From Candidatus Omnitrophota bacterium (GTDB taxonomy: Bacteria > Omnitrophota > Gorgyraeia > Aquiviventales > JACQRC01), in NCBI GenBank assembly GCA_016206665.1, contig JACQRC010000015.1:118-64117 (forward strand): a stretch of DNA of 64,000 nt, read 5' to 3'. This document shows, in pieces, positions 1 to 23,764 of this stretch (positions are counted from its first letter, which is position 1; the number at the start of each line of letters is the position of its first letter). The notes below the pieces were generated by a model. The model saw nothing but the letters and a program-made list of their open reading frames with translations. It was not told the origin of the DNA and made no database searches. A program made the translations under genes and the position numbers.

Positions 1-1104
1 TTGGGCCATAACCACCCGGCGGTCCAAGAGGCGATCGGACGGCAACTGCGCGACGGCCTGTCGTTTTCGCTGATGCATCCGCTGGAAGTGGAGGTATCGG
101 AGCGTTTGCTCTCATCGGTGCCATGGGCTGAGATGATCCGGTTTGGCAAATCGGGTTCCGATGTGACCTCCATCGCCGTGCGATTGGCCCGCGCCTCCAC
201 CGGGCGGGAGATGGTCCTGCACTGCGGCTACCACGGCTGGCATGATTGGTACGTGGCCTCGACCAGCCGGCGGCGCGGCATTCCCGAGGCTGTCGCGGCC
301 CTGCAAGCAGCGTTTTCCTACAACGATCTGGAAGCGTTACGACAGTTGTTCAGGACGTTCCGCAACCAGGTGGCGGCGGTCATCATGGAGCCGTACATTG
401 TGACCGAGCCCGCCGCGGGCTTTCTGGAGGGCGTGCGTGAGCTCACCCACGCCAACGGCGCGCTGCTCGTCTTCGATGAGGTGGTCTCCGGCTTCAGGTA
501 TCGGTGGGGCGGTGCGTACGAGTTGTTTGGCGTGACACCGGATCTGATCTGTTTCGGCAAGGCCATAGCCAACGGGTTGCCCCTGTCGGCCATCGCTGGT
601 CCCTCGACGATCATGGAGCTGCTCGAGGATGAGGTGTTTTTCTCCATGACCTTTGGCGGCGAGACGCTGTCGCTCGCCGCCTGCGCCGCGACATTGGGTG
701 AACTGCGCAAGCCCGAGGCCTTCCAGCGCATGTGGCAGGTGGGTCGCCAGCTCCAGGAGGGGCTGCAGGCCCTCGTGGCCAGCTACGGGCTGCAAGCTCA
801 CGTGCAGTGCCTGGGCCGGCCCCCGCGAACGCTGGTGGTCTTCCGCGATCGAGAGGGGAAGGAATCGCTCGCCTTGAAGAGTTTATTCCAGCAGGAAGTC
901 CTCAAACGCGGCATTCTGTTCAACGGTCTCCAGTTGCCGTCGGCGGCCCATACCGAGGCGGACATCGAGCTCACGTTAGGGGCGTTTCAGGAGGCGTTGG
1001 CGATTCTCCGTGAAGCGGTGCAGGACGACAGTGCTGACCGGCGGCTGGAGGGCACGCCCATTCAGCCGGTCTTCCGGCCCTTGCTCCCTGTGGAGCAGCG
1101 GTAG
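1..1104 (+). CDS. Class-III PLP aminotransferase (glutamate-1-semialdehyde aminomutase-like); 5' end cut by window edge
   Basis: The frame is open from nt 1 to TAG 1102-1104, and the TTG at nt 1 is not a real start. Motifs GHNHP, KSGSDV, DEVVSGFR and FGKAIANG (PLP-lysine region) are typical of class-III aminotransferases. Confidence 0.8.
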   Translation: MGHNHPAVQEAIGRQLRDGLSFSLMHPLEVEVSERLLSSVPWAEMIRFGKSGSDVTSIAVRLARASTGREMVLHCGYHGWHDWYVASTSRRRGIPEAVAALQAAFSYNDLEALRQLFRTFRNQVAAVIMEPYIVTEPAAGFLEGVRELTHANGALLVFDEVVSGFRYRWGGAYELFGVTPDLICFGKAIANGLPLSAIAGPSTIMELLEDEVFFSMTFGGETLSLAACAATLGELRKPEAFQRMWQVGRQLQEGLQALVASYGLQAHVQCLGRPPRTLVVFRDREGKESLALKSLFQQEVLKRGILFNGLQLPSAAHTEADIELTLGAFQEALAILREAVQDDSADRRLEGTPIQPVFRPLLPVEQR

Positions 1105-1108
1105 CCTC

Positions 1109-2161
1109 ATGAACCAGCAGCTGACCATTGGCAAGCGTCCGATCGGACCGGGGCAGCCGTGCTTCATCATTGCGGAGGCCGGATCCAATCACAACGGACA
1201 ACTGGACACGGCGTTGGCGCTCATCGATAGCGCGGCGGAGTGCGGCGCGGATGCCGTGAAGTTTCAAACCTTCAACGTCGACCAGCTGGTGGCGCCGACA
1301 CGGCACCCGATCGCCCGTCTCTCGGACCAATTCGGTCAGTTTGGGCAGACCGTCTACGACATGTTCCAGAAGGTGCAGATGCCGCTGGAGTGGCTGCCGC
1401 AACTGTACGAACGCGCCACATCCCGCGGCCTCATCTTTCTGTCAACGCCGTTCGACGAGGCGAGCGTTGATCATCTGGAGCAGTTGGGAGTGCCGGGCTT
1501 CAAGGTCGCCTCCTACGAGATCGTCCATCTGCCCCTGTTGCGATATATCGCCAGCAAGCAGAAGCCCATCCTGCTGTCGACCGGCATGGCGGACTTGGGT
1601 GAGATCGAGGAGGCCCTGAAGGTGATTCATGCCGAAGGGAATGACCAAGTGGCACTCCTGCATTGTGCCATCGGCTATCCTGCCGCTCCCGAGCATGTGC
1701 ATCTGGCGGCGATGGAGACGCTGCGCCAGGCCTTTGGCCTGCCGGTGGGATTTTCCGACCATACGCTGGGCATTGCCGTGCCCCTGGCCGCGGTCGCCCG
1801 CGGGGCCTCGGTGATCGAAAAGCACTTCACGTTGGATGCCCGCGCTCAGGGGCCTGACCACAGCTTCGCGGCCGAGCCAGAGATATTGGCGCAGATGATT
1901 CAAGGTATCCGCGAAGTCGAACGCGCGATCGGTTCTCCTGAGAAACGTTGCCAGCCGAGCGAGGAGCTTCACTATCATCGGGGTCGTCGTGCCATCTTTG
2001 CGGCGGTGGATATCCCTGAAGGGATGCTCATTGCTCCGGAGATGCTGGCCATCCTGCGCCCTGGCGTCGGTCTCAAACCGAAGTTTTTCGACGTGCTGGT
2101 CGGTCGACGAGCCAAGCGAGCCATCCGGGCCTTTGATCCGGTTTCGTGGGATGATGTCTGA
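1109..2161 (+). CDS. NeuB/PseI/LegI-family nonulosonic-acid synthase, copy 1
   Basis: ATG 1109 lies 4 nt after the upstream stop; the track start 1010 is an upstream extension overlapping gene 1. Motifs FIIAEAGSNHNG, AVKFQTF, GFSDHTLG and VIEKHFTLD are present, plus a C-terminal SAF-like segment (IPEGMLIAPEMLAILRPG). Confidence 0.85.
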   Translation: MNQQLTIGKRPIGPGQPCFIIAEAGSNHNGQLDTALALIDSAAECGADAVKFQTFNVDQLVAPTRHPIARLSDQFGQFGQTVYDMFQKVQMPLEWLPQLYERATSRGLIFLSTPFDEASVDHLEQLGVPGFKVASYEIVHLPLLRYIASKQKPILLSTGMADLGEIEEALKVIHAEGNDQVALLHCAIGYPAAPEHVHLAAMETLRQAFGLPVGFSDHTLGIAVPLAAVARGASVIEKHFTLDARAQGPDHSFAAEPEILAQMIQGIREVERAIGSPEKRCQPSEELHYHRGRRAIFAAVDIPEGMLIAPEMLAILRPGVGLKPKFFDVLVGRRAKRAIRAFDPVSWDDV

Positions 2162-3233
2162 GATGGTCTCAAGACGGACAACGCGCAGCGGGGCGAGGGT
2201 CCTGATGAAGGTCGAAGGCGGCGGGCGTTTCGGCTTGGGGCATGTGGTGCGCTCTCTCGAGCTGGCGGCTGTGCTCAGGCGCTCCGGTGTCAGCATCGCG
2301 GGTTTTGCCTGCAATGACGATGCGGCCAGCCGGGCGAGGATTCGCGCCGCGGGCTATCCGTGTGACGTGTTGCCGATATCTCAGCGTGGAAGCTTGGTGC
2401 AGATGGTCGATCGCACCTCGGCGAATGCCATCGTGGTTGATCAACCGACTGACGCGGTGAGGGCATTCCGGGCATTACGGCGGGTACGACCCGGGCTGTT
2501 CTTGGCGGCGCTGGATCCTCCCGTGCCAGATGTGGCGGCCTTCGATGCGGTCATCACGCTGTTCCACCATGGGACGGCGCCACGCCCGGCCCGAACCACA
2601 GGCTATCACGAGGGAGTGGAGTTCGCCGTCCTTGGCTCGCAATTCTCCATGCGCCGCGCTCCACCGAACGGCCTCATAAAGGAGGTCAAAGAGATCTTGG
2701 TGTGCTTTGGCGGCACGGACCCGCAGCGGCTCACCGTGAAGGTCTTGCGTGCGCTGCAAAGAGGATTGCCAGGTACACCAACACTGCACATCGTGTTAGG
2801 GCCGGGATTGACCTTCGGCTCCGTAGTGCGGCAAGCGGCCCGTGACGGCGCCCTGCCGTATGAACTGCACACAGACGTCCATCTGATGTCCCGATTGATG
2901 GCCGGTTGCCAACTCGCCATTTGCAGCGGGGGCGCTACGCTGATGGAGCTCTGTTGCGTGGGATGTCCGGCGCTCGTCATCGCGCAGAATGAGGCCGAAG
3001 CGCGATTCGCCACCTATGTGAGCCGTCGGGGCGCCGCCCGCTACGTGGGGCCCGCGAGACGGGTGACAGAGCGAGAGATCCGCGCCGCGGTGCTGGCGAT
3101 GTGCGCAGCACCAGCCGTCCGACGGCGGCAGGCCGCACACGGCCAGCGACTCATTGATGGGCGCGGCACTCGGCGGACGGCGTCAATCCTGCTGAAGGAG
3201 TTGGAATGGAGTTTGCAAACACACAGTACCTGA
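2151..3233 (+). CDS. PseG/SpsG-like protein (GT-B fold, GT28 C-terminal domain; UDP-sugar hydrolase or transferase), copy 1
   Basis: N-terminal loop GGGRFGLGHVVRSLELA, CFGGTDP, and C-terminal SGGATLMELCCVGCPALVIAQNEAE resemble PseG/SpsG. The start is ambiguous among in-frame ATGs at 2151, 2154 and 2163. Confidence 0.7.
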   Translation: MMSEMVSRRTTRSGARVLMKVEGGGRFGLGHVVRSLELAAVLRRSGVSIAGFACNDDAASRARIRAAGYPCDVLPISQRGSLVQMVDRTSANAIVVDQPTDAVRAFRALRRVRPGLFLAALDPPVPDVAAFDAVITLFHHGTAPRPARTTGYHEGVEFAVLGSQFSMRRAPPNGLIKEVKEILVCFGGTDPQRLTVKVLRALQRGLPGTPTLHIVLGPGLTFGSVVRQAARDGALPYELHTDVHLMSRLMAGCQLAICSGGATLMELCCVGCPALVIAQNEAEARFATYVSRRGAARYVGPARRVTEREIRAAVLAMCAAPAVRRRQAAHGQRLIDGRGTRRTASILLKELEWSLQTHST

Positions 3234-10534: not shown

Positions 10535-11628
10535 AGACTGTCACGATCACCGGCCTTTCCGTTATGCCATTGACTCCGAGCCAGCACGGCGCGTGGGATC
10601 GGTTCGCGGCCGAGTCGGATACGGCGTGGTTCTGGCATACCACCGCATGGCTGACCTATGCGCGCGCGTTCACCGCAGAGCGATTCATGGACGACCTATC
10701 TTTTATGATCTACAACGGGCCGGAGCTGTGCGCCATCTGCCCGGTGTTCCTGGAAGAGGAGTACGGCATCCGGCGCTTCGCCTGCGTGGGCGAACCGCTG
10801 CCCTTTCCCGCCTACAAGCCTGGCCTGGGCGCGGGCGCGCAATGTCGGGTGCTGGATCTGTACATCGAGACGCTGGCCCGGCTGGCCGAGGAGCACCAGG
10901 CGGCCTACGTATCGGTCCGCGTGCCGCCGGTGGCGGCCGCCTCTCGCGAGAACGCGGCCCTGCCAGTCAACCCGCTGTTGCCATACGGATTTTTTGATCT
11001 AACGGTGCTGACGCAGGTGGTCGATCTGCGGCAGCCCCGCGAGACGCTGTGGGCACAGATCCGCAAAGGCCACAAATCAGACATCAAACGCGGCGGCAAG
11101 TCGTGCGCGGTGACGGTGTGGGATCAGGCGACGATCACGCTGGAGAAATTCCGTCAGTACCAAGAGCTGCACCGGAAGGATGCGGGACGGGCCACCCGCT
11201 CGCAGCGGACCTTCGATCTCATGCTCGACTGGGTGCGAGACGGCCAGGCGATGCTGACCGAAGCGCACATCGGCGATCGTCCCATCGCCTTTGCCCTGGT
11301 GATGCGGTTCGGGGTGGGCGCGTACTACGGGTCGGGCTGCAAGGACCCGGACCATCTCTCTGTGCCGGCCTCCCATCTGATTCAGTGGGAGGCGATGCTC
11401 TGGCTCAAAGCGCACGGCACGCAGTTCTACGATCTCGGGCTGCAGCATTTGGCCCCACAATGGTTTCACGTCCCGACCGCCAAAGAGCTCGGCATCTCCA
11501 GCTTCAAGCGGGGGTTTGGCGGCATGACGGTACCGCTGGCCACCGCTGAGCGGTTCTATGCATTGGACTACCTCAAGGAAACCTTTGCCCGTCGAATGGA
11601 GGCGCATGTCAGCTCATCTCGCGTTTGA
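10531..11628 (+). CDS. FemAB-like / GNAT-fold peptidyl- or aminoacyl-transferase family protein
   Basis: ATGA overlap. The layout and motifs (WDRFAAESDTAWFWHTTAW, IRKGHKSDIKRG, GAYYGSGC, HLIQWEAMLWLKAHG, FKRGFGG) resemble FemAB-family proteins found in EPS loci. Confidence 0.6.
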   Translation: MKTVTITGLSVMPLTPSQHGAWDRFAAESDTAWFWHTTAWLTYARAFTAERFMDDLSFMIYNGPELCAICPVFLEEEYGIRRFACVGEPLPFPAYKPGLGAGAQCRVLDLYIETLARLAEEHQAAYVSVRVPPVAAASRENAALPVNPLLPYGFFDLTVLTQVVDLRQPRETLWAQIRKGHKSDIKRGGKSCAVTVWDQATITLEKFRQYQELHRKDAGRATRSQRTFDLMLDWVRDGQAMLTEAHIGDRPIAFALVMRFGVGAYYGSGCKDPDHLSVPASHLIQWEAMLWLKAHGTQFYDLGLQHLAPQWFHVPTAKELGISSFKRGFGGMTVPLATAERFYALDYLKETFARRMEAHVSSSRV

Positions 11629-12646
11629 GCCGCGCGTGCGGTGGCGCGATTGCCTGGGAGCATCCCGCGTGACGTGGGAGTTGCTCGACGCGCAGGCGAG
11701 CGCGCTCATCGGCTGTCCGGGAGTGGTGGTCCCCTCAATCAGGGTGGCACTCGCCTGGCTCCTGGAGGCGTCAGGGTTCGTGCGGTGGCGTGACCAAGTG
11801 CTGGTGCCGCGCTTCCTCGGGCGCTGCCTCTTGACGCCGATCCTGCGCCACGCACTGCCGGTGGAGTCGCTCACCTCCTCGACGCGGCTGATGCTCGTCG
11901 TGCATCAATTCGGATGTGACCAGCAGCTCGACGAGATTTGGCAGATGTGCCGGCAGCACGGCATCGCCTATGTCGAGGACAGCCCCGGCGGGTTGCGCGA
12001 AACCGAAGGTCTGGGCCCGGGTTCATGGGGCCGCTTTGTCAGTTTGTCGAAGGTGCTGCCGATTCTGCGCGGGGCCTTTTTCATCACCGAAGATGAGCGG
12101 TGGCTCGCGCTGATGCGGCAGCGCCGGCAGGCGAGCCACCCGGCGGCGTGGCTGCTTTTTGGATGGCTGATGCGCAGCCGCCACCATGTGCACGCACCGC
12201 ACGACTCGCCCTGGGGCGATACGCTGACCGAGTTGCAGCTCATGGCGGCCGGCGGTCATGCCCTGCACCGCGTCAACATCCAGCGAGGTCTGGCCCAGCT
12301 CGCGCAGTATAGCCGCTTGGCCCGCCAGCGTCTGGCACGTGCCGCCGCTGCCTTAGGTGATCACGCGGTGTTGCCGGCGACGACGCGGCTCCCATATGTG
12401 GTACCCATCATGGCCCCCGAGGACTCGGCCGCGATGGAGGCGTCTCTGCGTGCGCACGGCTTCGATGCCATGCGTTACCATTTCGATCGCCGCCACCATC
12501 TGCTGGAGCCGGATTATCAGCAGGTGTACTTGTTGCCGCTCAATCCGACGATACCGCAGACGCGGTTTGAGGCGGTGCTCGGGGATCTCGAGCGGATTGT
12601 GCGCACGCAGCCGGCAGATGCCCTGGTGGAGAGCCATGGCCGTTGA
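11606..12646 (+). CDS. Divergent DegT/DnrJ/EryC1-like putative PLP-dependent enzyme
   Basis: ATG 11606 is preceded by GGAGG. LVVHQFGCDQQLDEIWQMCRQHGIAYVEDSPGG and a candidate PLP lysine in SLSKVLPILRGAFF recall sugar aminotransferases. The protein is divergent and the call is tentative. Confidence 0.4.
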   Translation: MSAHLAFEPRVRWRDCLGASRVTWELLDAQASALIGCPGVVVPSIRVALAWLLEASGFVRWRDQVLVPRFLGRCLLTPILRHALPVESLTSSTRLMLVVHQFGCDQQLDEIWQMCRQHGIAYVEDSPGGLRETEGLGPGSWGRFVSLSKVLPILRGAFFITEDERWLALMRQRRQASHPAAWLLFGWLMRSRHHVHAPHDSPWGDTLTELQLMAAGGHALHRVNIQRGLAQLAQYSRLARQRLARAAAALGDHAVLPATTRLPYVVPIMAPEDSAAMEASLRAHGFDAMRYHFDRRHHLLEPDYQQVYLLPLNPTIPQTRFEAVLGDLERIVRTQPADALVESHGR

Positions 12647-13709
12647 GGTCCGGTCGGCACGCCATCACGGTGAGGTCACGCAAGCCTGCACGCTTGCGGC
12701 GCACATTTTTGGCACCGACGTCGAGCAGAGCCGACGACGGCAAGAGGCGTGGCTGCGCCTTGAACCGTGTGCGGATCTGCGGGATCTCGTGCTCGCCTGC
12801 GAGGGCGGCGAGGTGGTGGGTCTGATTCGCATCGTCAACCGCCAGTTCCATTGGTCCGATGGCATGGTCCCAGCCGGCGGCCTCGCGCATGTCGGCCTCC
12901 ACGAGGCGTATCGGGGGCGCGGGCTGGGTGGCCGTATGGTGGAGGCGGCCCTGGCGCGACTCACCGAGCGCCACGACACGCTCGCGGTGCTCTTTGCGCG
13001 CCGTGCCGTGGATGGGTGGTACCCAAAATTCGGGTTCGTCGGGCTCGGCTGCCATCCGGAGCTGCGCGTGGAGCCGGCGGCGCTGTCGGAGACGATGCAG
13101 CCGCGCGAGGTCCAGGTGGAGACAGGCCTGGGCTCCGTGCCTGCCGAGGCATGGCAGACGCTGTATGAGGCGTCGTATCGTGAGCTGCCGCTCAGCTTCT
13201 ACCGCGATGGCCTGTGGTGGGCAGGGTGGGAGGAGCGGCTGGCCATGACGGTGGGCTGTGAGCGGGTGACGCGTTTTTACATGGCGGACCGACTCATTGG
13301 CTATGCGGTCAGCGACGGCGAGCGCGTCGTCGAGGCAGCCGCGGATGTCAGCTGGCAGGCGTCCTGTGCTCAAGCGCTGTGCGCGCAAGCAGCCGAGCAA
13401 GATGAAGGGCTGGCGCTTCGCTTACCGACCGACCACTGGCTAATGCGATGGCTCCAACGGTTGAATCACACGCTGACCATTCGATACGCCTGGGATGGCG
13501 GCCACATGGTGCGACTGATGGGTGCCCGGGCCTTGCAGAGCGTGGAAGCCGCGGAGACAGGTTGGGATGCCAGACAGGCTGTCGGCGTGGCGCGCGCCTC
13601 GCGCTCGCGTCTCGAGGAGCAATGCAGTCGTCTGCTGGAACTGCTGACGGCAGCGCCGCCCGCAGTCGTGCCGTCGCTGCCCACGTGGTCGATTCTGGAT
13701 GAGTTTTAG
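12636..13709 (+). CDS. GNAT acetyltransferase with long C-terminal extension (Eis-like architecture)
   Basis: ATG 12636 has an 11-nt overlap; the track start 12357 is an R/C-rich extension. The GNAT core is VGLIRIVNRQF...HVGLHEAYRGRGLGGRMVEAAL (acetyl-CoA loop RGxGxG). Confidence 0.65.
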   Translation: MAVEVRSARHHGEVTQACTLAAHIFGTDVEQSRRRQEAWLRLEPCADLRDLVLACEGGEVVGLIRIVNRQFHWSDGMVPAGGLAHVGLHEAYRGRGLGGRMVEAALARLTERHDTLAVLFARRAVDGWYPKFGFVGLGCHPELRVEPAALSETMQPREVQVETGLGSVPAEAWQTLYEASYRELPLSFYRDGLWWAGWEERLAMTVGCERVTRFYMADRLIGYAVSDGERVVEAAADVSWQASCAQALCAQAAEQDEGLALRLPTDHWLMRWLQRLNHTLTIRYAWDGGHMVRLMGARALQSVEAAETGWDARQAVGVARASRSRLEEQCSRLLELLTAAPPAVVPSLPTWSILDEF

Positions 13710-15524: not shown

Positions 15525-16514
15525 ATGACGACTCGTGACGTGGAGCGTTTGAACCGCGCACGGATTCCCCACGCGGACGAATACTATGACCGCCTGCAGT
15601 ACGAGCACGATCCGTATGCCGGCTACCGGCTGCGGCCGAACCAGCATCTGCCGCACATCACCATCAACGCCGACGGCTTCCGCGGACGGCCGTGGCGTGG
15701 TGACGAGACGACGCTGCTGTTCGGCGACTCCGTGACCTTCGGAGTCGGCGCGTCGGGCGACGATGCCTGTTTTGCGCGTTTCCTCGAGCGCCGACTGGGA
15801 ACACCCGTCGCCGACGCCTCGGTACGGGCCTACCGGATCGGCCAGCATTTCAGTCGGTTGCCCGCGCTCTGCGAGCGACTGCCGCATCTCCAGCGGGTGG
15901 TGCTGTGGGGTGGATATTTGGATTTGCTATTCTGGGTTATCACCGGTGGCCGCTTAGACGGGGCCTTTCAATTTGCGGAGAAGCACGGGCCGACGCAGGG
16001 GTGGGGCGCCGTCGTCGCCCGCTGGCACCATCGGCTCCGGCTGACGGCACCCTACCAAGTGCTGCGTGGCGTCGTGCGCGCGCGGCATCCGGCGGTGCGC
16101 GAACCGGCGCTGTCCATCGAGGCGCTGGCCGACCATGTCGTGGCCTACGTGCAGGCGATGCATGGCCTCTGTGTCGCTCGCAAGGTCGGGTTCAGTTTTC
16201 TGTTGCAGCCCTTCGTCCACGCAAGGCCTCAGGCGCCCGACCTGCAACGATTGACGGATGCTCACGACGCGCAGGCGCAGCGGAAATGCGGCCGCAGCTG
16301 GTACGAGAGCGCTGCTCGGTATGTCGGCGCGCTGCAGGCGCTCCTCAAGCGCGATGGGACCATCCACTGGACGGATTGTCAGGCCTGGATCGCCGAGGAG
16401 GATTTGCTCGACCAGGTGCACCTGCGGGAGCAGGCGGTGAGCCGCCTCGCCACGCAGGTGGCCCCGCGACTCGGCCCGTGGGTCAAGGCGTCAGCCATGG
16501 AGGTGTTGGCGTGA
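15525..16514 (+). CDS. SGNH/GDSL-type hydrolase or O-acyltransferase-like protein
   Basis: ATG 15525 lies 4 nt after the upstream stop; the track start 15321 is an extension. It has a block-I LLFGDSVTFGVG (GDS) and a C-terminal DQVH (DxxH) catalytic-type motif. Confidence 0.55.
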   Translation: MTTRDVERLNRARIPHADEYYDRLQYEHDPYAGYRLRPNQHLPHITINADGFRGRPWRGDETTLLFGDSVTFGVGASGDDACFARFLERRLGTPVADASVRAYRIGQHFSRLPALCERLPHLQRVVLWGGYLDLLFWVITGGRLDGAFQFAEKHGPTQGWGAVVARWHHRLRLTAPYQVLRGVVRARHPAVREPALSIEALADHVVAYVQAMHGLCVARKVGFSFLLQPFVHARPQAPDLQRLTDAHDAQAQRKCGRSWYESAARYVGALQALLKRDGTIHWTDCQAWIAEEDLLDQVHLREQAVSRLATQVAPRLGPWVKASAMEVLA

Positions 16515-16531
16515 TACTTCGCGAGGGCAGG

Positions 16532-17608
16532 ATGCATACGAATCTTGGCGCGTTCTGCGTGGGGCCCGACTGCTCATTCCGTGAGGCCGTGCGCCACATT
16601 GACGAGAATGGTCTCGGCATCGTGTTAGTGGTGGATCCCGAGCGCCGGCTGCTGGGTACCATCACGGATGGCGACGCGCGGCGGGCCATCCTCGCCAACG
16701 TTAACCTGGAGGCTCCGGTGGCGGCGCTGCTCGCGCTGAAGGCCGGTTCGCGCCATGCGCGGCCGGTCACGGCGCGCGTCGGCACGGATCGCGAGACCTG
16801 TGTGCGGCTGATGCGCAGCCACGGCATTCTCCACCTGCCCTTGCTGGATGCGCAGGAGCGCGTGGCCGGGGTCGTGCGCCTGAATGACTTCGTGCAGGAG
16901 GGTCCTCTGCCGACGCTCCAGGCGGTGGTCATGGCCGGCGGAGCGGGCCGACGGCTGAGCCCCCTCACCGATGAGACACCCAAGCCGATGCTGCCCATCG
17001 GCGACCGGCCGCTCCTGGAGATCATCATCGAGCAATTGCGTGAGGCGGGCATCACCCAGGTGAAGGTGACGACCCATCACAAGCCTGAGAAGATTGTCGA
17101 GCATTTCGGTGATGGCAAAGAGTTCGGGGTGGAGCTCTCCTATATGGAGGAGGACCGGCCGTTGGGGACGGCGGGGGCGCTGGGGTTGCTCGCGGCGCCG
17201 ACCACGACCACCCTGGTCGTCTGCGGTGACATCTTGACGCAGGTGGACTACCGGACCCTGGTCGCCTACCACCGCGGCCATCAGGCGGAGCTGACGATGG
17301 TCGTGCGGCCCCACGACCTGAAGGTGCCGTACGGCGTGGTCGAGTGCGACGGGCCGCTGGTGCGCCGGGTGCGGGAGAAACCCGTCCTCAATTTGTTTGT
17401 CAATGCGGGCATCTACCTACTCGAGCCGTCGGCCTTCACCGATATTCCAAAGGCGCAGCGGTTCGACATGACCGACCTGATCCAATCGCTGCTCGATGCC
17501 GGCCGGCGGGTGGTGAGCTTCCCGCTGTATGAATTTTGGCTCGACATCGGCCAGCATGCGGACTACCGGGAGGCCCAGGAGCAGGTGAAGACATGGAAGA
17601 GTTCATGA
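16532..17608 (+). CDS. Tandem-CBS-domain sugar-phosphate nucleotidyltransferase (PtmE-like architecture)
   Basis: CBS-like segments are GIVLVVDPERRLLGTITDGDARRAIL and ILHLPLLDAQERVAGVVRLNDF. The NTP-transferase signature AVVMAGGAGRRLSPLTDETPKPMLPIGDRPLL follows. ATG 16532 comes after GAGGG, and an alternative GTG 16511 sits in a GTGA overlap. Confidence 0.85.
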   Translation: MHTNLGAFCVGPDCSFREAVRHIDENGLGIVLVVDPERRLLGTITDGDARRAILANVNLEAPVAALLALKAGSRHARPVTARVGTDRETCVRLMRSHGILHLPLLDAQERVAGVVRLNDFVQEGPLPTLQAVVMAGGAGRRLSPLTDETPKPMLPIGDRPLLEIIIEQLREAGITQVKVTTHHKPEKIVEHFGDGKEFGVELSYMEEDRPLGTAGALGLLAAPTTTTLVVCGDILTQVDYRTLVAYHRGHQAELTMVVRPHDLKVPYGVVECDGPLVRRVREKPVLNLFVNAGIYLLEPSAFTDIPKAQRFDMTDLIQSLLDAGRRVVSFPLYEFWLDIGQHADYREAQEQVKTWKSS

Positions 17609-18591
17609 ATTCCTGGAAGGGCAAGCGGGTCGTCGTCACCGGGGCCGGTGGCTTCATCGGCAGCCACCTCACCGAGCGGCTGGTGGAGTTGGGGGCGACG
17701 ACTCGGGCGTTTGTCCACTACCATGCCAATGGGTCGTGGGGGCGGCTCGACGGCTCACCTCATCAAGACGCGATCGAGGTCATCGCCGGCGACATCTGTG
17801 ACCGGGAACGAGTAGCCCAGGCGCTGGAAGGGACCGACGTCGTCTTCCACCTGGCGGCGCTCATCACCATTCCCTACTCGTACGAGGCGCCGCAGTCGTA
17901 CGTGCGGACGATCATCCAGGGCACGCTCAACGTGCTGCAGGCCGCGCGGGACGCGGGGGTGCAGCGGGTGGTTCACACCTCCAGCAGCGAGGTATACGGG
18001 ACGGCCCGCTCCGTGCCGATCGATGAAGCGCATCCGCTCCAAGCGCAATCGCCGTACGCGGCCTGCAAGATTGGGGCCGACAAACTGGCCGAGGCCTTCC
18101 ATCGCTCGTTTGGAGTGCCTGTGGTGACGGTCCGCCCTTTCAACACCTACGGCCCACGGCAGTCGACCCGAGCGATCGTGCCGGCCATCATCACCCAATG
18201 TCTCACCAACGACCGCCTACGGTTAGGCAACCTATCACCGACCCGGGACCTCTTGTTTGTCGCGGACACGGTGGAAGGCTTTGTGCAGGCCGCCGTGGCG
18301 CCGCAGGCCGTGGGCCGGACCATCAATCTGGGGACCGGCCGCGAGATCACGATCGGCGCACTGGCCGAATTGATCGGCCAACTCTGCGGCAGCACCCTGA
18401 CGGTGGAGCGTGATGAGGAGCGCATGCGGCCCACGGGTAGTGAAGTCGGTCGGCTCGTCGCCGACATTCGACTGGCCAGGGAGCTGTTGGGCTGGCAGCC
18501 GTCTGTGTCATTGGAAGAGGGGCTGCGGCGGACGATTCAGTGGTATCGGGAGCATCTCGAGGGTTTTCGCGCCGGCGCCTACGCGCGGTAA
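17605..18591 (+). CDS. NAD-dependent sugar epimerase/4,6-dehydratase (extended SDR)
   Basis: ATG 17605 is in an ATGA overlap; an alternative ATG lies at 17593. Motifs are VVVTGAGGFIGSHL (GxxGxxG), TSSSEVYG and YAACK (YxxxK). Confidence 0.85.
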   Translation: MNSWKGKRVVVTGAGGFIGSHLTERLVELGATTRAFVHYHANGSWGRLDGSPHQDAIEVIAGDICDRERVAQALEGTDVVFHLAALITIPYSYEAPQSYVRTIIQGTLNVLQAARDAGVQRVVHTSSSEVYGTARSVPIDEAHPLQAQSPYAACKIGADKLAEAFHRSFGVPVVTVRPFNTYGPRQSTRAIVPAIITQCLTNDRLRLGNLSPTRDLLFVADTVEGFVQAAVAPQAVGRTINLGTGREITIGALAELIGQLCGSTLTVERDEERMRPTGSEVGRLVADIRLARELLGWQPSVSLEEGLRRTIQWYREHLEGFRAGAYAR

Positions 18592-18617: not shown

Positions 18618-20420
18618 ATGCAGATTGGTCAACGCCTCATCGATGAACACCGTCCCCTCGTCATCGCCGAGCTCGCCTCGGCGCACGAGGGCAGCATCGA
18701 GCAGGCCTGCACGTGGGTGCGGGCCGTGGCTGAGGCGGGCGGCGAGGCCGTCAAGTTCCAACTGGTCATCGCCAAGGAGCTCGTGACGCACCAGCACCCA
18801 CAAGCAGGCCGCTTTCGCTCACTGGAGCTTGGGCGGGAGGGCTGGGCGACGGTGCTCGCGGAGACGCGGCGGTGCGGGCTCATCCCGTTCGCCGATCTCT
18901 TTGGCGAACAGAGCTTGGCGTTGGCGCAGGAGTTGGGGTTTTCCGCGCTGAAAATTCCCTCGGCGACGTTCACGGATGCCGTCCTGGTCCCGCAGGTCGC
19001 GCGGTTGGGATTGCCGACGTTGTTATCAACGGCCGGGGCATCCCAAGAGGAAATCGGCTGGGTCGTGGAGCAATTCCGTTGCGCCAGACACGAAGCCTTC
19101 GTGCTGCTGCACGGGTTTCAGGGATTTCCGACACCGCCGGAACAAGCCCACTTGGCGCGCCTGGGCTGGCTGCGCGAGCGGTTCGGCTGTCCCGTGGGAC
19201 TCTCCGACCACGCCCCCGGTGATTCGCCGTGGGCGCAGCGGTTGCCGCTCATGGCCTCGGCACTGGGGGCCGTCATCATCGAGAAGCATGTGACGCTGGA
19301 CCGGAGCCGGCACGGCACGGACTGGGTCTCCTCGCTGGAGCCCGGCGAACTGCGCGAATTGATCGCGGCCCTGCGCGCAGCGCCCACGGCGCTGGGCCGG
19401 CCCGGCGGTGTGTGGCAGCCATCGGAGGCGGCCTACCGTCAACAGATGCGGCGACACCTCGTGGCACGGCACGCGCTCGCGGCGGGTGAGATCGTGACGT
19501 CGGAGAAGCTGATGGCGCGGCGGGTCGCGTCCTCTGACGCCATTGACCCGTGGTTTCTTCAACCCGCCGCCGGCCGGCCCGTGGTCGGTCAGAAGGCAGC
19601 GCGTGCGATCGCGGAGGGAGAGGCGCTCACGTGGAGCGATCTTGCCAACCCTGTCATCGCCGTGTGCATCGCGGTGCGTCTCAAGTCTCAACGATTACCG
19701 CGCAAGGCGCTGGCCGATCTGGCCGGCCGCACGGCGGTGGAACGGCTCATTGAGCGGCTCAAGACATCCCGGCGCGCGCAGCGGCTCGTGCTGTGCACCT
19801 CGACCTTGTCAGAAGACCAACCGCTCGTCGTACTCGCACAGCGGCTGGGCATCGCCTGGGTCTGCGGGGATGCCGATGACGTCATGGGGAGGTTTCTTCA
19901 GGCGGCGGATCAGGCGGGTGCCGACGTCATCGTGCGAGCAACGGGTGATAATCCCCTCACCGATGCCGAGACGATCGATCGGATGATCGAGGTTCATCTG
20001 GCCCATGACGCGGAGTACACCTACACGGAGGACTTGCCGGTCGGGACGTGTCCGGAGATTATCGCGGTGCCTGCCTTGCGTCGCCTCCATGGCCAGGCGG
20101 AAGATCCGACCCAGACCGAGTACATGACCTTGTATTTGCGGCAGCCGGGCGCGGTACGGGCCCACCGGTACAGCGTCGAGGATGCGCAGCTGGTGCGGCC
20201 GCAGTACCGCTTGACGTTGGATACGCCAGAAGATTTGGCGCTGCTGCGGGAGCTCTATCGGCGGCTGGGCGGCCGCTCCGACGTGGCCCTGATGGAGGTC
20301 ATCCGGTTGTTGGATGCCACCCCAGCGCTGGCCGGTCTCAACGCGCGGGTCGCGCAGCAGGACTTGTCCGGACGGATCAACACCCGGTTGCGCGCTCCGG
20401 CCGCAACCACGGCGGCCTAA
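18618..20420 (+). CDS. Fusion protein: divergent NeuB-like synthase domain (copy 2) + SpsF/NeuA-type cytidylyltransferase domain
   Basis: ATG 18618 comes after GGGGGAGCTGGAGAG. The N-terminal half has VIAELASAHEGS, AVKFQLV, GLSDHAPG, IIEKHVTLD and a SAF-like GEIVTSEKLMARR. The C-terminal half (IAVCIAVRLKSQRLPRKALADLAGRT...ATGDNPL...) is of the CTP_transf_3 type. Confidence 0.75.
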   Translation: MQIGQRLIDEHRPLVIAELASAHEGSIEQACTWVRAVAEAGGEAVKFQLVIAKELVTHQHPQAGRFRSLELGREGWATVLAETRRCGLIPFADLFGEQSLALAQELGFSALKIPSATFTDAVLVPQVARLGLPTLLSTAGASQEEIGWVVEQFRCARHEAFVLLHGFQGFPTPPEQAHLARLGWLRERFGCPVGLSDHAPGDSPWAQRLPLMASALGAVIIEKHVTLDRSRHGTDWVSSLEPGELRELIAALRAAPTALGRPGGVWQPSEAAYRQQMRRHLVARHALAAGEIVTSEKLMARRVASSDAIDPWFLQPAAGRPVVGQKAARAIAEGEALTWSDLANPVIAVCIAVRLKSQRLPRKALADLAGRTAVERLIERLKTSRRAQRLVLCTSTLSEDQPLVVLAQRLGIAWVCGDADDVMGRFLQAADQAGADVIVRATGDNPLTDAETIDRMIEVHLAHDAEYTYTEDLPVGTCPEIIAVPALRRLHGQAEDPTQTEYMTLYLRQPGAVRAHRYSVEDAQLVRPQYRLTLDTPEDLALLRELYRRLGGRSDVALMEVIRLLDATPALAGLNARVAQQDLSGRINTRLRAPAATTAA

Positions 20421-20446
20421 ACCGGACCGCCGGCCAAGGAGACATC

Positions 20447-21544
20447 ATGGGGCTGGTCAACTTCTACGTGGAACGGGGATGGCTGCGACGCAAAGCCGCC
20501 TGGGTGCGGGAGCTCTGGCAGCGCGGCTTCGACTGGCGCTTCCTCGTCTACCGCGCCAAGTTCAATTGGTCACACCGCCTCGATCGGCCGGGCCGCTTTC
20601 CAGCCCACCTCGACATCGAGACGACCGACGCCTGCAACCTGCGGTGCGTCATGTGCGTCCAGGGCATCGGCGAGGGCGTGCAGAACACCGGCATGATTGA
20701 CATGGACTTCGCGAAGCGGCTCATCGACCAGGGCGCCACGCATGGCCTCTACTCGATCAAGTTCAACTGGCGGGGTGAACCGGCGCTGCACGCGGGCCTC
20801 GTGGAGTTGGTGCGGTATGCCAAGTCACGGGGGATTCTCGAGGTGCAGTTCAACACGAACGGCATTCCCTACACCGAATCCAAGATTCGGGAGCTCGTCC
20901 TCTCCGGCCTCGACCGGATCATCTTCTCCATGGATGGGGCGACCAAGGCCACCTACGAGAAGATTCGCGTCGGCAGCGATTATGACAAGCTGGTCGAGAA
21001 TGTGAAACGCTTCCATGCCATCCGGACGGAGCTCAAGCGGGAACGCCCCTTCATCCGCATCCAGATGGTACGGATGAAGGACAACCAGCACGAGGTGGAC
21101 CAGTTCATCGCGATGTGGAAGCCGTTTGTCGATGATATCCGCGTCGATGATGTGTCGAATCGCGGGCAGGGGAACCAAATGTCGGTCGGCGACTGGGTCT
21201 CCACAGGCCGCAAACGCTGCCCGCAGCCGTGGCAGCGGATGATCGTCTCCCGCGACGGCAAGGTGCTGCCGTGCTGCGCCGACTGGAACCGGGAGTTCAT
21301 CATCGGTGACGCCACGAAGGAGCCCTTGACGCAGATTTGGCGCGGCAAGCGGATGGAGATGATGCGCCAGGTGCAGCGGGACATCCGGTTGAACGAGATC
21401 GACCCCTGCCGCTACTGTTACGTCAAGGAAAGCTACACGTGGCAGCGGATGGACCGGCAGGTTCCGCCGGCGGCGCCTCCGAACCCGCCGGGGGAGCCGA
21501 TCTTGGAACCTGCCGCGCATGCGACGCCGGTGGCGGCGTGCTAA
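20447..21544 (+). CDS. Radical SAM enzyme with SPASM/twitch-like C-terminus, type-1 copy B
   Basis: ATG 20447 is preceded by AAGGAGA. Motifs are TTDACNLRCVMC (CxxxCxxC), FIRIQMV, and the C-terminal CPQPWQRMIVSRDGKVLPCCADWN...PCRYC. It is a paralogue of the 3206 gene by eye. Confidence 0.8.
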   Translation: MGLVNFYVERGWLRRKAAWVRELWQRGFDWRFLVYRAKFNWSHRLDRPGRFPAHLDIETTDACNLRCVMCVQGIGEGVQNTGMIDMDFAKRLIDQGATHGLYSIKFNWRGEPALHAGLVELVRYAKSRGILEVQFNTNGIPYTESKIRELVLSGLDRIIFSMDGATKATYEKIRVGSDYDKLVENVKRFHAIRTELKRERPFIRIQMVRMKDNQHEVDQFIAMWKPFVDDIRVDDVSNRGQGNQMSVGDWVSTGRKRCPQPWQRMIVSRDGKVLPCCADWNREFIIGDATKEPLTQIWRGKRMEMMRQVQRDIRLNEIDPCRYCYVKESYTWQRMDRQVPPAAPPNPPGEPILEPAAHATPVAAC

Positions 21545-21558
21545 GCGGAGAGCGAGCG

Positions 21559-22653
21559 ATGGCGACGATTACAATCGGCAACAAGCGCGTCGGTCCTGGC
21601 CGGCCCACCTTCGTCATTGCCGAGGCCGGGTGTAATCACGAGTGCAACCTGACGACGGCGAAGCGGATGGTCCGCGAGGCGGCCCGGGCCGGCGCGGACG
21701 CCATCAAATTCCAAACCTACAAAGCCGAGACCTTGGCGACGCGCACGGCACCCAAATACTGGAAGCACATCCCCGGCTCTCCGAGGACGCAGTTCGAGTT
21801 CTTCAAGCAGCTGGACCATTTCGGCCGGCGGGAGTTTGCCGCGCTGGCGCAGGAGTGCCGGCGCGCGGGCATCCTGTTCTTGTCCACGCCGTGGGACCTG
21901 CGCAGCGCGGATCTGCTCGATGACCTGGGCATGCCGGCCTTCAAGATCGGCTCGGCGGATCTGACCTACCTGCCGCTCATCCGCCACTGCGCGGCGAAGG
22001 GCAAGCCGATGATCTTGTCCACCGGTGCGGCGACGCTGGCGGAGATGCGGCAGGCCGTGAACGCCGTGCTGGAGACCGGCAACCGGCAACTCATCCTGCT
22101 GCACTGCATTCTGGCGTATCACACCGAGCCGCCGGACGTCCATCTGGCCATGATCGGCGAGCTGCAACGGCGGTTTCCAGACGTGCCCATCGGCTTCTCG
22201 GACCACACCATCGCCGACGCCTGTCTGACAATCCAAACAGCGGCGGTCGCCGCGGGCGCACGCGTGGTGGAGAAGCACTTTACGTTGAACCAGCGCGCAT
22301 CAGGGAACGACCACTGGCATTCCCTAGAGCCCGGCAGCTTGGCGCAGATGGTCAAGAATTTCCGCGTAGTGGAGCAGGCCCTGGGACAGGCGGGCCCCCG
22401 CCGACCGCTCGCTTGCGAACTGCCCGCGAGGCGGCTGGCGCGTCGCAGCGTCGTCGCCATCCGCGAGATCCCGCGCGGTGCGCGGATTGAGGAAGGATGG
22501 CTGACAGGCAAACGGCCGGGCACCGGCATTTCGCCGGCGCAGTTGTCCCGCATCGTCGGGCGCCGCGCGCGGCGGACCATTCCGGAAGACACGGTGATCA
22601 CCTGGTCCATGATTGGTGGGGCGCGCAAACTCGATGAGGCGATCGCCGTCTAA
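21559..22653 (+). CDS. NeuB/PseI/LegI-family nonulosonic-acid synthase, copy 3
   Basis: ATG 21559. Motifs are VIAEAGCNHECN, AIKFQTY, GFSDHT and VVEKHFTLN, with a C-terminal SAF-like region (IPRGARIEEGWLTGKRPGTG). Confidence 0.85.
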   Translation: MATITIGNKRVGPGRPTFVIAEAGCNHECNLTTAKRMVREAARAGADAIKFQTYKAETLATRTAPKYWKHIPGSPRTQFEFFKQLDHFGRREFAALAQECRRAGILFLSTPWDLRSADLLDDLGMPAFKIGSADLTYLPLIRHCAAKGKPMILSTGAATLAEMRQAVNAVLETGNRQLILLHCILAYHTEPPDVHLAMIGELQRRFPDVPIGFSDHTIADACLTIQTAAVAAGARVVEKHFTLNQRASGNDHWHSLEPGSLAQMVKNFRVVEQALGQAGPRRPLACELPARRLARRSVVAIREIPRGARIEEGWLTGKRPGTGISPAQLSRIVGRRARRTIPEDTVITWSMIGGARKLDEAIAV

Positions 22654-22654
22654 G

Positions 22655-23764
22655 ATGCTCATGCCGAGGCCACGGGTCACGATTCATCTGCACGCCAGCG
22701 AGCAGATTGGGACGGGACATCTGTTCCGCATGCTCTGGCTGGCCCGCCGCCTGCGCCAGCAGGGTGTGACGGTGGAGATGCTGCTTCGGGGGAAGGCCGC
22801 GGTGGCGGCATCCATTCGGCGATGGGGTATTGCCGTGCAGGCCTATCCGGATGCTGTCCCCATGCGCCAGGCGGTAACACGGTATCTGCTGGGTCTGCGC
22901 CGCCGGCCGTCGGTGTGGGTGAACGATTGTTTGACCGTTCCCCGCACGGTGAACGTGGCCATCCAGCGCCACCGCATTCCGATTGTGACGCTGGATGACC
23001 TGGCGCGCGGTTTGTCGTCGGAGGATTGCGTGGTGAACGCCCAGCCGTCCTTTTGGCACACTGTCCGGCTCACCACCCCCGCCCAGGTGTGTCAGGGGCC
23101 GAGGTACAAGGTGCTGCATCCGGCGGTCCAGCAGTACCACGACCGTCCCAAACGCCTCGCGCGCCGCCGGCGGTACCACGTCGCCGTGACCTTCGGTGGC
23201 ACCGACCAGCACGGGCTGCTCTTTGAGGTCCTGCGCGCCATGCGCCGGGTCCAGCACCCGGTGCAGTGGCACCTTTTTCTCGGGCCGATGTTTGCCCATC
23301 GCCGGCGTCTGGGTGCGTGGCGGCGCCGGCTGGCGGGCGGCGCCGTGCGGGTCCGGTGGCACGACGGGAGTTGGAACGTGATTCCGCTCTTTGCCCGGAT
23401 GGACGCGGCGATCTGCTCCTGCGGGTTAACCATTTTCGAGATGATGGGCGTCGGCACGCCTGCGCTGGCGGTTGCCAACGCGCCGCACGAGGCGCACAAC
23501 GGCCGGTATTTTGCGTCGGAGGGCGGGTGTCAGTTTCTGGGCCTCCATCGCCGCGTCACGGCGCGCGCCATCGCCGACGCGCTCGACGATTTGTTGGAGG
23601 ACGGGGCGCGCCGGGCCGCCATGTCACGGCGTGGCAAGGCGCTGGTGGACGGCCGGGGTCTGGAGCGGGTGACGGAGCTCATCATGGAGCGGCTGTCGGC
23701 TCCCGCGCCCCGTTGCGCGCGGGCGCGCAACGGGGCAGCTCATCTGGTCGGAGCGTCGACGTGA
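22655..23764 (+). CDS. PseG/SpsG-like protein (GT-B fold), copy 2
   Basis: ATG 22655 lies 1 nt after the upstream stop. Motifs are ASEQIGTGHLFRMLWLARRL, VTFGGTDQ and CSCGLTIFEMMGVGTPALAVANAPHE. Confidence 0.7.
   Translation: MLMPRPRVTIHLHASEQIGTGHLFRMLWLARRLRQQGVTVEMLLRGKAAVAASIRRWGIAVQAYPDAVPMRQAVTRYLLGLRRRPSVWVNDCLTVPRTVNVAIQRHRIPIVTLDDLARGLSSEDCVVNAQPSFWHTVRLTTPAQVCQGPRYKVLHPAVQQYHDRPKRLARRRRYHVAVTFGGTDQHGLLFEVLRAMRRVQHPVQWHLFLGPMFAHRRRLGAWRRRLAGGAVRVRWHDGSWNVIPLFARMDAAICSCGLTIFEMMGVGTPALAVANAPHEAHNGRYFASEGGCQFLGLHRRVTARAIADALDDLLEDGARRAAMSRRGKALVDGRGLERVTELIMERLSAPAPRCARARNGAAHLVGAST

Follow-up and report, generated by a model that had tools for sequence, protein, structure and literature searches.

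The fused gene and its neighbours

The window, by which we mean the whole stretch of 64,000 nucleotides that was analysed, carries a gene whose 600-residue product unites a NeuB-type TIM barrel, a SAF domain and an SpsF-type cytidylyltransferase (CT). Its domains, motifs and neighbouring genes are as follows, with residues of Neisseria meningitidis NeuB (NmeNeuB) in brackets where they are equivalent.

18618..20420, + strand: complete fusion gene, 600 aa (NeuB TIM barrel, SAF and SpsF-type CT)
18618..19403, + strand: NeuB-type TIM-barrel domain, about aa 1-262 (PF03102; PDB sequence matches 6ncs, 3g8r, 8h2c, 1vli, 2wqp)
18666..18695, + strand: first active-site motif AELASAHEGS, residues 17-26
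19209..19289, + strand: segment with metal ligands H198 and H224 (H215, H236) and E222 (E234)
19458..19643, + strand: SAF (antifreeze-like) domain, which holds R302 (PF08666)
19656..20342, + strand: CTP_transf_3 CT domain of the SpsF/6oew type, about aa 347-575 (PF02348, 6oew, Foldseek)
19677..19706, + strand: nucleotide-binding motif RLKSQRLPRK (R354, S357, R359, K363)
1010..2161 (outer limits), + strand: canonical NeuB+SAF paralogue 1 (Pfam 306 bits; PseI model 335 bits against a cut-off of 340)
1989..3233, + strand: second PseG-like gene, directly after paralogue 1 (TIGR03590, 105 bits)
15905..17608 (outer limits), + strand: upstream ORF with a CBS pair and an NTP_transferase domain, a sugar-1-phosphate nucleotidyltransferase
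17536..18591 (outer limits), + strand: LegB-like NAD-dependent 4,6-dehydratase (TIGR04180, 427 bits against a cut-off of 475)
20048..21544 (outer limits; real start near 20450), + strand: downstream radical SAM/SPASM enzyme
21337..22653 (outer limits; likely start 21559), + strand: canonical NeuB+SAF paralogue 2 (Pfam 267 bits; TIGR03569 334 bits)
22613..23764, + strand: PseG-like NDP-sugar hydrolase (TIGR03590, 99 bits against a cut-off of 153)

The reading frame of the fusion is open from 18540; a GGAG stands before its ATG at 18618, and its stop codon ends at 20420. The gene upstream stops at 18591. Pfam places NeuB (PF03102) at residues 34-261 (155 bits, cut-off 22.1), SAF (PF08666) at 281-342 (30.8 bits, cut-off 21) and CTP_transf_3 (PF02348) at 349-547 (79.6 bits, cut-off 22.6), and the AlphaFold2 model (mean pLDDT 92) is matched by Foldseek to PseI/NeuB and to 6oew. 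An NCBI protein from a Candidatus Omnitrophica MAG matches the product with 100% identity from end to end. The single ORF of the original prediction, with all three domains, is borne out. An assembly or sequencing artefact joining two separate genes would be in keeping with the adjacent split versions found in some genomes, such as Omnitrophota locus L044, but the frame has no frameshift or internal stop, its product recurs unchanged in NCBI, and over 170 homologues, independent of one another and drawn from isolates as well as MAGs, have the same single-ORF form, 173 of them collinear through the linker at the domain junction; this explanation is effectively refuted.

The original prediction had also counted three synthase paralogues and one CMP-activating domain, and these numbers hold within the window. 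Pfam searches of the 57 large forward-strand ORFs, together with HMM and phmmer scans of every six-frame ORF of 50 aa or more, give a count of exactly three NeuB domains and place the only CTP_transf_3-type domain in the fusion ORF. The possibility that another CT lies hidden upstream of the PseG-like genes was rejected, as those ORFs overlap the ends of NeuB genes and match no CT model. The three synthase domains beside one CMP-activating domain are the sole local oddity of the cluster. With no other domain of its type in the window, the fused CT plausibly activates what the canonical paralogues make as well; the NeuA/PseF-type CT that partners the canonical NeuB in syntenic loci is absent from the 64 kb and may be encoded on a different contig of the MAG.

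Among the neighbours, the CBS/NTP_transferase ORF belongs to a nucleotidyltransferase family other than that of the fused CT and has a homologue in the syntenic locus L003, with which the LegB-like dehydratase also shares 55% identity. The PseG-like protein at 22613-23764 lacks the CT that is fused to its Elusimicrobiota homologue, and its tblastn match to L003 (14248-15990) covers residues 217-565 only. Pfam searches of the same 57 ORFs recognised neither a LegC/PseC-type aminotransferase nor a NeuC/LegG-type epimerase, and a ManNAc-producing NeuC, for comparison with N. meningitidis, is likewise missing from the window.

A widespread fused family with an active-site signature

A database search for the same domain fusion returned no fewer than 130 clusters (50% identity), and some 50 GTDB species representatives carry it; these come from many phyla and include cultured Bacillus, Flavobacterium and Dyadobacter. 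The gene context of the family was read from such homologues and GTDB loci. The present protein shares 28-69% identity with other members over 93-99% of its length, each a single ORF, and fused relatives already carry the database (IMG) name 'SpsF/sialic acid synthase'. Judged by sequence, the gene is thus one member of a widespread and already annotated family; the implied peculiarity of the fusion to this window was not upheld, and the idea that only this window has one is rejected by the spread across phyla. Nor are two synthase domains for each CT an oddity, this being the usual state of the family: a separate canonical stand-alone NeuB is present in about 42 of 51 fused loci, although in B. 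stercoris (L020) the fusion has no adjacent NeuB. In Bacillus spizizenii (L021) it lies beside a complete Pse cassette. Loci L013, L044 and L074 carry a split form with adjacent NeuB and CT genes, in that order, and the same active-site signature. Many of the fused loci with a canonical NeuB have the fusion in the place of pseF and no other CT. In the arrangement here called Type II, a dehydratase, an aminotransferase, the fusion, PseG and NeuB follow one another, the fused CT is the only CT, and the fusion holds the pseF position of a pseB-C-(F)-G-H-I-like operon, which makes C. jejuni PseI with PseF one of the closest known systems. At L001 and L003 a separate NeuA/PseF-type CT accompanies the canonical NeuB, which implies two pathways in parallel and a self-contained fusion; syntenic loci of this composition occur in Elusimicrobiota and Alphaproteobacteria. 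Literature searches yielded no characterised or assayed NeuB-CT fusion and no bifunctional PseF/PseI.

The divergence of the first active-site motif from those of the two paralogues (AEAGSNHNG in ORF 1010-2161 and AEAGCNHECN in ORF 21337-22653) was confirmed for all three sequences. Set against NmeNeuB, E18 corresponds to E25, A20 to G27, A22 to N29 and H23 to H30; the family consensus reads AExA[NS]AH[EQ]G, and HEGS is also the motif of the N. meningitidis enzyme. The fusion retains the equivalents of NmeNeuB E25, H30, K53, Q55, K129, H215, E234, H236, D247 and R314, every one of which is conserved in 160 or more of the 173 fused proteins; the segment with both metal ligands and E222 is invariant in 172 of these, and the SAF residue R302, equivalent to R314, is arginine in 160. 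An exception is E134, one of the three glutamates, with E25 and E234, proposed as catalytic (PMC8208679). Its position is T117 here, with E18 and E222 present, and across the 173 proteins it is most often Asp (89), Val (39) or Ile (13); the equivalent is lost in about 45% of the family, with Val or Ile in about 30%. The check for a pseudo-enzyme is mostly negative: the fusion has the metal ligands and the equivalents of E25, E234, K53, Q55, K129, D247 and R314, but Thr in the place of E134.

The altered substrate suggested by the original prediction gains support from the observation that the divergent motif is part of a signature of four positions at or beside the active site. In N. meningitidis numbering these are G27A, N29 to a residue other than Asn, T110D and N184Q, and the present fusion has A20, A22, D93 and Q168 at the respective sites. 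About 90% of the 173 fused proteins have the signature, whereas 41 stand-alone NeuBs from these loci lack it and have G/S27, N29, S/T110 and S/T184; paralogue 2 is likewise canonical with G27, N29, T110 and D134. T110 and N184 line the ligand in NmeNeuB (PMC6795526). Because the pocket carries these family-specific substitutions, the fused synthase probably uses a different aldose, or makes a different product, than the canonical NeuB 1 kb downstream.

With N. meningitidis NeuB/SiaC (PDB 1xuu, 2wqp) the fusion shares the TIM barrel and SAF fold; it differs from this enzyme, at 28% identity, by G27A, N29A, T110D, E134T, N184Q and Y186F. C. jejuni PseI (PDB 8h2c), which Foldseek ranks first for the N-terminal half (TMt 0.79), has S27, N29, S110, E134 and S184, unlike the fusion, and B. 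subtilis SpsE (PDB 1vli), which matches this half with 96 bits, has the canonical G27, N29, T110 and E134 together with A184. The solved structures closest in sequence to each half, at 110 and 70 bits, are Leptospira borgpetersenii 6ncs ('sialic acid synthetase') and 6oew ('cytidylyltransferase'), with Foldseek TMt values of 0.89 and 0.91; these are separate structural-genomics proteins of no reported function, and 6ncs is without a SAF domain and canonical at G27, N29 and T110.

In the CT half the N-terminal R..S.R.P.K and C-terminal (L/V)DT.ED motifs are both intact. RLKSQRLPRK lines up with 6oew and with the KdsB motif R..S.RLPGK and is nearly invariant in the family; R354, S357, R359, K363, T442, D444, D535 and D539 all align with 6oew and KdsB and are each found in at least 156 of the 173 fused proteins. 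Sequence searches with this half return 6oew first (E 1.4e-18) and CMP-Kdo synthetases next. The barrel diverges only slightly faster than the CT, pairs with 53% identity in the CT having 43% in the barrel for example, which points to purifying selection on both halves of the fused protein.

Proposed function and alternative readings

From the domain folds, the conservation of catalytic motifs, the family size and the synteny we infer the activity of both halves and the kind of substrate they use. We propose, and hold to be somewhat better than an even prospect, that the fusion is a bifunctional nonulosonic-acid synthase and CMP-synthetase of a widespread fused family related to SpsE/SpsF, probably acting on a non-canonical substrate. 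The metal-dependent TIM barrel, capped by the SAF domain, would condense phosphoenolpyruvate with an aldose of the 6-deoxy-amino-hexose type to give a nine-carbon 2-ulosonic (nonulosonic) acid, which the C-terminal SpsF/FlmC-type domain would couple to CTP, yielding the CMP-sugar, the form used by glycosyltransferases. In B. subtilis the same two families occur in the same order in adjacent genes, spsE being needed to make legionaminic acid and spsF for transfer to the spore surface (PMC7439481); unlike the fusion, SpsE and SpsF are two separate proteins, and SpsF is a putative CMP-Leg synthetase inferred genetically. Caulobacter crescentus FlmC, which is cytidylyltransferase-like and has no homology to PseF, was part of a six-gene operon with which E. 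coli glycosylated flagellin in a manner dependent on pseudaminic acid (PMC7591256). A CT need not, then, be of the PseF type to carry out the CMP-Pse step; FlmC differs from the fused CT in standing alone, and is compared with it here by description.

Several observations count against the bifunctional assignment. Both halves fall far under the NCBIfam equivalog cut-offs: the fusion scores 188.5 bits with N-acetylneuraminate synthase TIGR03569 (cut-off 399.65) and 172 bits with the PseI model TIGR03586 (cut-off 340.25), while its CT half reaches 27-55 bits with KdsB equivalogs (TIGR00466, NF003948 and others; cut-offs 155-281) and has no PseF-family model among its NCBIfam matches. A canonical NeuB almost always lies beside the fusion, and the fused barrel may be redundant or do otherwise. 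The Thr in place of E134 speaks against it as well, as does the aldose donor pathway, which the genes of the window leave undefined because they include neither a LegC/PseC-type aminotransferase nor a NeuC/LegG-type epimerase.

An alternative is that the fusion is only a CMP-nonulosonate synthetase in the PseF/LegF role, whose barrel is a non-catalytic module for substrate binding, scaffolding or channelling, supplied with product by the canonical NeuB beside it. The pseF slot of Type II loci, in an operon otherwise complete and with its own NeuB, the frequent companion NeuB elsewhere, the loss of the E134 equivalent here and in much of the family, and the replacement of T110 and N184 would all suit this role. 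We nevertheless consider it unlikely: both metal ligands, E25, E234, K53, K129, D247 and the trans-acting R314 persist across many phyla, the conservation of the barrel comes close to that of the CT, a metal and PEP site kept in full is not expected of a mere scaffold, and the B. stercoris fusion adjoins no NeuB. Similarly improbable, in our estimation, is that the barrel makes a different PEP-derived ulosonic acid, or uses a differently substituted or free-amine hexose, in a branch tailored by the adjacent radical SAM/SPASM enzyme whose product is not Neu, Leg or Pse. The signature, with its new carboxylate at T110D and with N184Q, is consistent with such chemistry but could merely tune specificity among known nonulosonic acids. 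The radical SAM/SPASM gene directly and tightly adjoins the fusion in about 17 of 50 loci but is missing from Type II loci, and no chemistry is known for these enzymes. A Rosetta-stone link is provided by the NCBIfam spiro-SPASM model (TIGR04321), which joins a CT-like N-terminus of the same type to a radical SAM/SPASM C-terminus like that of the neighbouring gene; the fusion matches the former with 43 bits and ORF 20048-21544 the latter with 90 bits, all scores lying under the cut-off of 250, and a literature search for 'spiro-SPASM' found nothing relevant. T. forsythia PseF (Tanf_01200), a candidate family member, was inactive on plain Pse5,7Ac2 (PMC5378307), in line with this reading.

We suggest as a speculative possibility that the fused barrel, rather than being a redundant NeuB, is the founding enzyme of an unrecognised nonulosonic acid branch, its pocket accepting a hexose that canonical synthases refuse and the CT activating the product at once for tailoring by the radical SAM/SPASM enzyme. 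Such a hexose might, for example, bear a free or unusually acylated 4-amino group, and the pocket changes invoked are the Asp at T110, the Gln at N184 and the Ala at G27 and N29. If true, this would explain why fused and canonical synthases stand side by side in hundreds of genomes.

Meaning for nonulosonic acid biology

Nonulosonic acids adorn flagella, capsules, S-layers and spores, and influence immune recognition and phage attachment. The present gene on its own adds nothing beyond its membership of the fused family, which is very common in environmental bacteria and archaea and carries a consistent active-site change. For glycoengineering, the fused enzyme could bring the path from hexose to CMP-sugar into a single protein and, once its substrate is known, surface sugars would be better predicted from genomes.

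The fused gene and the synthases of the window

The fusion gene lies in a reading frame open from 18540, starts at an ATG (18618) preceded by GGAG and ends at 20420, the stop of the upstream gene being at 18591. An NCBI entry from a Candidatus Omnitrophica MAG, named 'N-acetylneuraminate synthase family protein', has the same sequence as its 600-aa product, and nearly all of that entry's contig (64,137 bp) falls inside the window.

Pfam domains of the fusion (window 18618-20420, + strand), by residue
34-261: NeuB domain, 155 bits
281-342: SAF domain
349-547: CTP_transf_3 domain, 79.6 bits

An AlphaFold2 model built from 21 homologues is confident (mean pLDDT 92). In Foldseek its N-terminal part resembles PseI, NeuB and 6ncs (TM 0.75-0.89 on target), and its C-terminal part resembles first the Leptospira cytidylyltransferase 6oew (TM 0.91) and then CMP-Kdo synthetases. 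The scores of both halves stay far short of the NCBIfam cut-offs for the NeuB, PseI and KdsB equivalogs. An assembly artefact was excluded as the origin of the fusion.

The original prediction of a NeuB-cytidylyltransferase (CT) fusion, with three synthase domains to one CMP-activating domain, is confirmed by ORF, Pfam and six-frame scans, since Pfam on the 57 large ORFs (57/57 on the + strand) and HMM and phmmer searches of all six-frame ORFs of at least 50 aa gave exactly three NeuB domains (980-2158, the fusion and 21310-22650) and no second CTP_transf_3-type CT in the window. The sole other nucleotidyltransferase, a CBS + NTP_transferase protein (15905-17608), is of the sugar-1-phosphate class. 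Within the window, the three synthase domains have no candidate activator besides the fused CT, which may act promiscuously on the products of several synthases; otherwise another contig may encode a CT of the NeuA/PseF type.

As a whole, the contig has the look of a single island for glycan biosynthesis. All ORFs of at least 200 aa with a protein-family match (window 1-64000) are on the + strand, and they include three NeuB, four radical SAM, two AsnB-like amidotransferase, at least nine methyltransferase, four PMT_2/ArnT-like membrane transferase and many GT2, GT4 and GT9 genes, a Wzy_C protein and a Glycos_transf_4 initiating transferase. The CBS-pair + NTP_transferase protein and the LegB-like 4,6-dehydratase that follows it (15905-18591) form a pair reminiscent of the way in which Campylobacter makes legionaminic acid through GDP-sugars (PtmE/LegB); neither a LegC/PseC (DegT) aminotransferase nor a NeuC/LegG epimerase was found within the window. 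A block at 8567-13709, common to the window and a syntenic Elusimicrobiota locus (L003 3426-8664), encodes a PFTS-motif protein (TIGR04417, 145 bits), a GNAT/FemAB-like protein, a PLP_IMCC1989 protein homologue and a second GNAT, and might provide for non-canonical amination and acylation.

An abundant family and its synthase signature

Database searches for the same domain fusion found it in abundance. A profile of 21 full-length homologues was run on 1.84 billion representative proteins; of the 150 top-scoring clusters (50% identity), at least 130 gave a single full-length match of 570-620 aa, scores exceeding 370 bits even at the bottom of those 150. Among GTDB species representatives, about 50 of the best 80 loci carry both halves in a single ORF, in taxa that include Desulfomonile, Thermodesulfovibrionales, Acidobacteriota, Planctomycetia, Pelagibacteraceae, Woesearchaeota, Nitrososphaera and many Bacteroidota. 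Cultured carriers include Bacillus stercoris, B. spizizenii, Cytobacillus firmus, Anaerobacillus, Dyadobacter tibetensis and Arenibacter, and a Dyadobacter-seeded search returned 778 relatives, the best 120 all fused. Fused relatives already bear names such as 'cytidylyltransferase domain-containing protein' (in the Dyadobacter search) and 'spore coat polysaccharide biosynthesis protein SpsF (cytidylyltransferase family)/sialic acid synthase', and the architecture is therefore already annotated; the fusion is a new member of an abundant family. A literature search found no paper reporting an assay of any member. Longer members of 800-1045 aa with extra domains include P0044, P0059, P0076, P0109, P0126, P0160 and P0297; one example, from Schinkia azotoformans (880 aa), has NeuB, Aldo_ket_red (aldo/keto reductase) and CT domains in Pfam.

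Active-site residues of N. meningitidis NeuB (NmeNeuB), their aligned equivalents in the fusion, and outcome
E25, E18, kept
G27, A20, changed
N29, A22, changed
H30, H23, kept
K53, K46, kept
Q55, Q48, kept
T110, D93, changed
K129, K112, kept
S132, S115, kept
E134, T117, changed
N184, Q168, changed
Y186, F170, changed
H215, H198, kept
E234, E222, kept
H236, H224, kept
D247, D235, kept
R314, R302, kept

In the alignment to this characterised synthase, E25, H30, K53, Q55, K129, H215, E234, H236, D247 and R314 have equivalents that are each present in at least 160 of 173 fused proteins. R314 is essential in NmeNeuB, and E25, E134 and E234 are its proposed catalytic glutamates (PMC8208679). The variable position 134 (D in 89 of the 173, V in 39, I in 13, T in the window protein) is the only genuine weak point in reading the fused barrel as catalytic. 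Fused and stand-alone synthases from the same loci differ systematically at four positions (27, 29, 110 and 184), and T110 and N184 are among the ligand-contacting residues of NmeNeuB (PMC6795526).

Residues at NmeNeuB positions in 173 fused proteins and 41 stand-alone NeuBs
27: A in 161/173 fused; G or S in the 41 stand-alone
29: Asn in just 9/173 fused; N in 37/41 stand-alone
110: D in 155/173 fused; S or T in 38/41 stand-alone
184: Q in 163/173 fused; S or T in stand-alone
134: variable in fused; E or D in stand-alone

The AELASAHEGS motif, at first flagged as divergent, is thus not private to this protein but the visible part of a signature of the fused family, and 'HEGS' occurs in NmeNeuB too. 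In the CT half, R354, S357, R359, K363, T442, D444, D535 and D539 are nearly invariant in the family and align with the R..S.RLPGK, TGD.PL and (L/V)DT.ED motifs of 6oew and KdsB.

Gene neighbourhoods

Clustering the neighbours of 50 fused loci gave two arrangements. Type I, to which the nearest relatives of the window protein belong, runs radical SAM/SPASM, fusion, GT2 + CT-like protein, canonical (stand-alone) NeuB and often a separate NeuA/PseF-type CT. Type II runs dehydratase, DegT aminotransferase, fusion, PseG, (GNAT) and NeuB, with the fusion in the usual pseF place as sole CT. A second, canonical NeuB lies within 10 kb in about 42 of 51 fused loci.

The window order is CBS-NTP_transferase, LegB-like dehydratase (TIGR04180, 427 bits against a cut-off of 475), fusion, radical SAM/SPASM, canonical NeuB, PseG-like and LIC13510-family protein. 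It is syntenic with the Elusimicrobiota locus, where the gene after NeuB (L003 14248-15990) joins an N-terminal NeuA/PseF-type CT to a PseG-like domain, whereas the window keeps the PseG-like part alone, its N-terminal CT missing. Each canonical NeuB paralogue of the window is followed by a PseG-like gene (1989-3233 and 22613-23764; TIGR03590, 105 and 99 bits, cut-off 153).

Adjacent split NeuB-then-CT genes with the family signature occur in a few genomes, another Omnitrophota included. At L044 9884-11726, the nearest Omnitrophota representative, signature NeuB and CT are two overlapping ORFs in different frames, an arrangement that reflects either a frameshift or a split or joining of the genes inside the phylum; three further NeuB genes lie within 22 kb.

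Bacillus loci with the fused gene upstream of a cardiolipin-synthase-like (PLD) gene
L021 9959-19343: B. spizizenii; fused gene upstream of a complete Pse-type cassette with its own CT and NeuB
L020 9959-11755: B. stercoris; fused gene alone, at the same chromosomal site

The inserted B. spizizenii cassette (about 8 kb, seven genes) holds Pen/Pal-like dehydratases, DegT, CT, PseG, GNAT and NeuB.

A model for the fused enzyme

We propose, as the reading best supported by the sequences and somewhat favoured over doubt, that the fusion is a bifunctional enzyme for two consecutive steps, in which the barrel would form a nonulosonic acid in a PEP-dependent reaction and the CT would then activate it with CMP, because conservation extends to both active sites, the fused form exists alongside split ones, and Type I relatives pair each synthase type with its own CT type. 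The same two steps are assigned to the adjacent B. subtilis genes spsE and spsF (PMC7439481). The pocket signature, together with the persistent co-occurrence of a canonical NeuB, suggests that a different aldose may be the substrate of the fused barrel.

That the fusion is instead a PseF-like enzyme with a non-catalytic barrel, as the loss of E134 might allow, seems improbable; the barrel evolves just slightly faster than the CT domain, which argues against a decaying pseudo-domain. The T. forsythia protein Tanf_01200, annotated PseF, shows only a weak match to C. jejuni PseF (37 bits) and had no activity towards Pse5,7Ac2 in vitro (PMC5378307); should it belong to the fused or SpsF type, it would provide the family's sole biochemical datum. 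We consider it equally unlikely that the fusion belongs to a new ulosonic-acid branch linked with the neighbouring radical SAM/SPASM enzyme; the spiro-SPASM model TIGR04321 hints at such a link, its N-terminus matching the fusion CT and its C-terminus the neighbouring gene. Residues 362-496 match its N-terminal half with 43 bits, and the radical SAM/SPASM genes at 20048-21544 and 3206-4297 its C-terminal half with 90 and 75 bits, all below the cut-off of 250. By Rosetta-stone logic these matches hint that the fused CT type and radical SAM enzymes might work together.

B. spizizenii and B. stercoris are carriers of the family that lend themselves to experiments. The product of the altered barrel is a family-level question worth an experiment, the single locus being of lesser interest.
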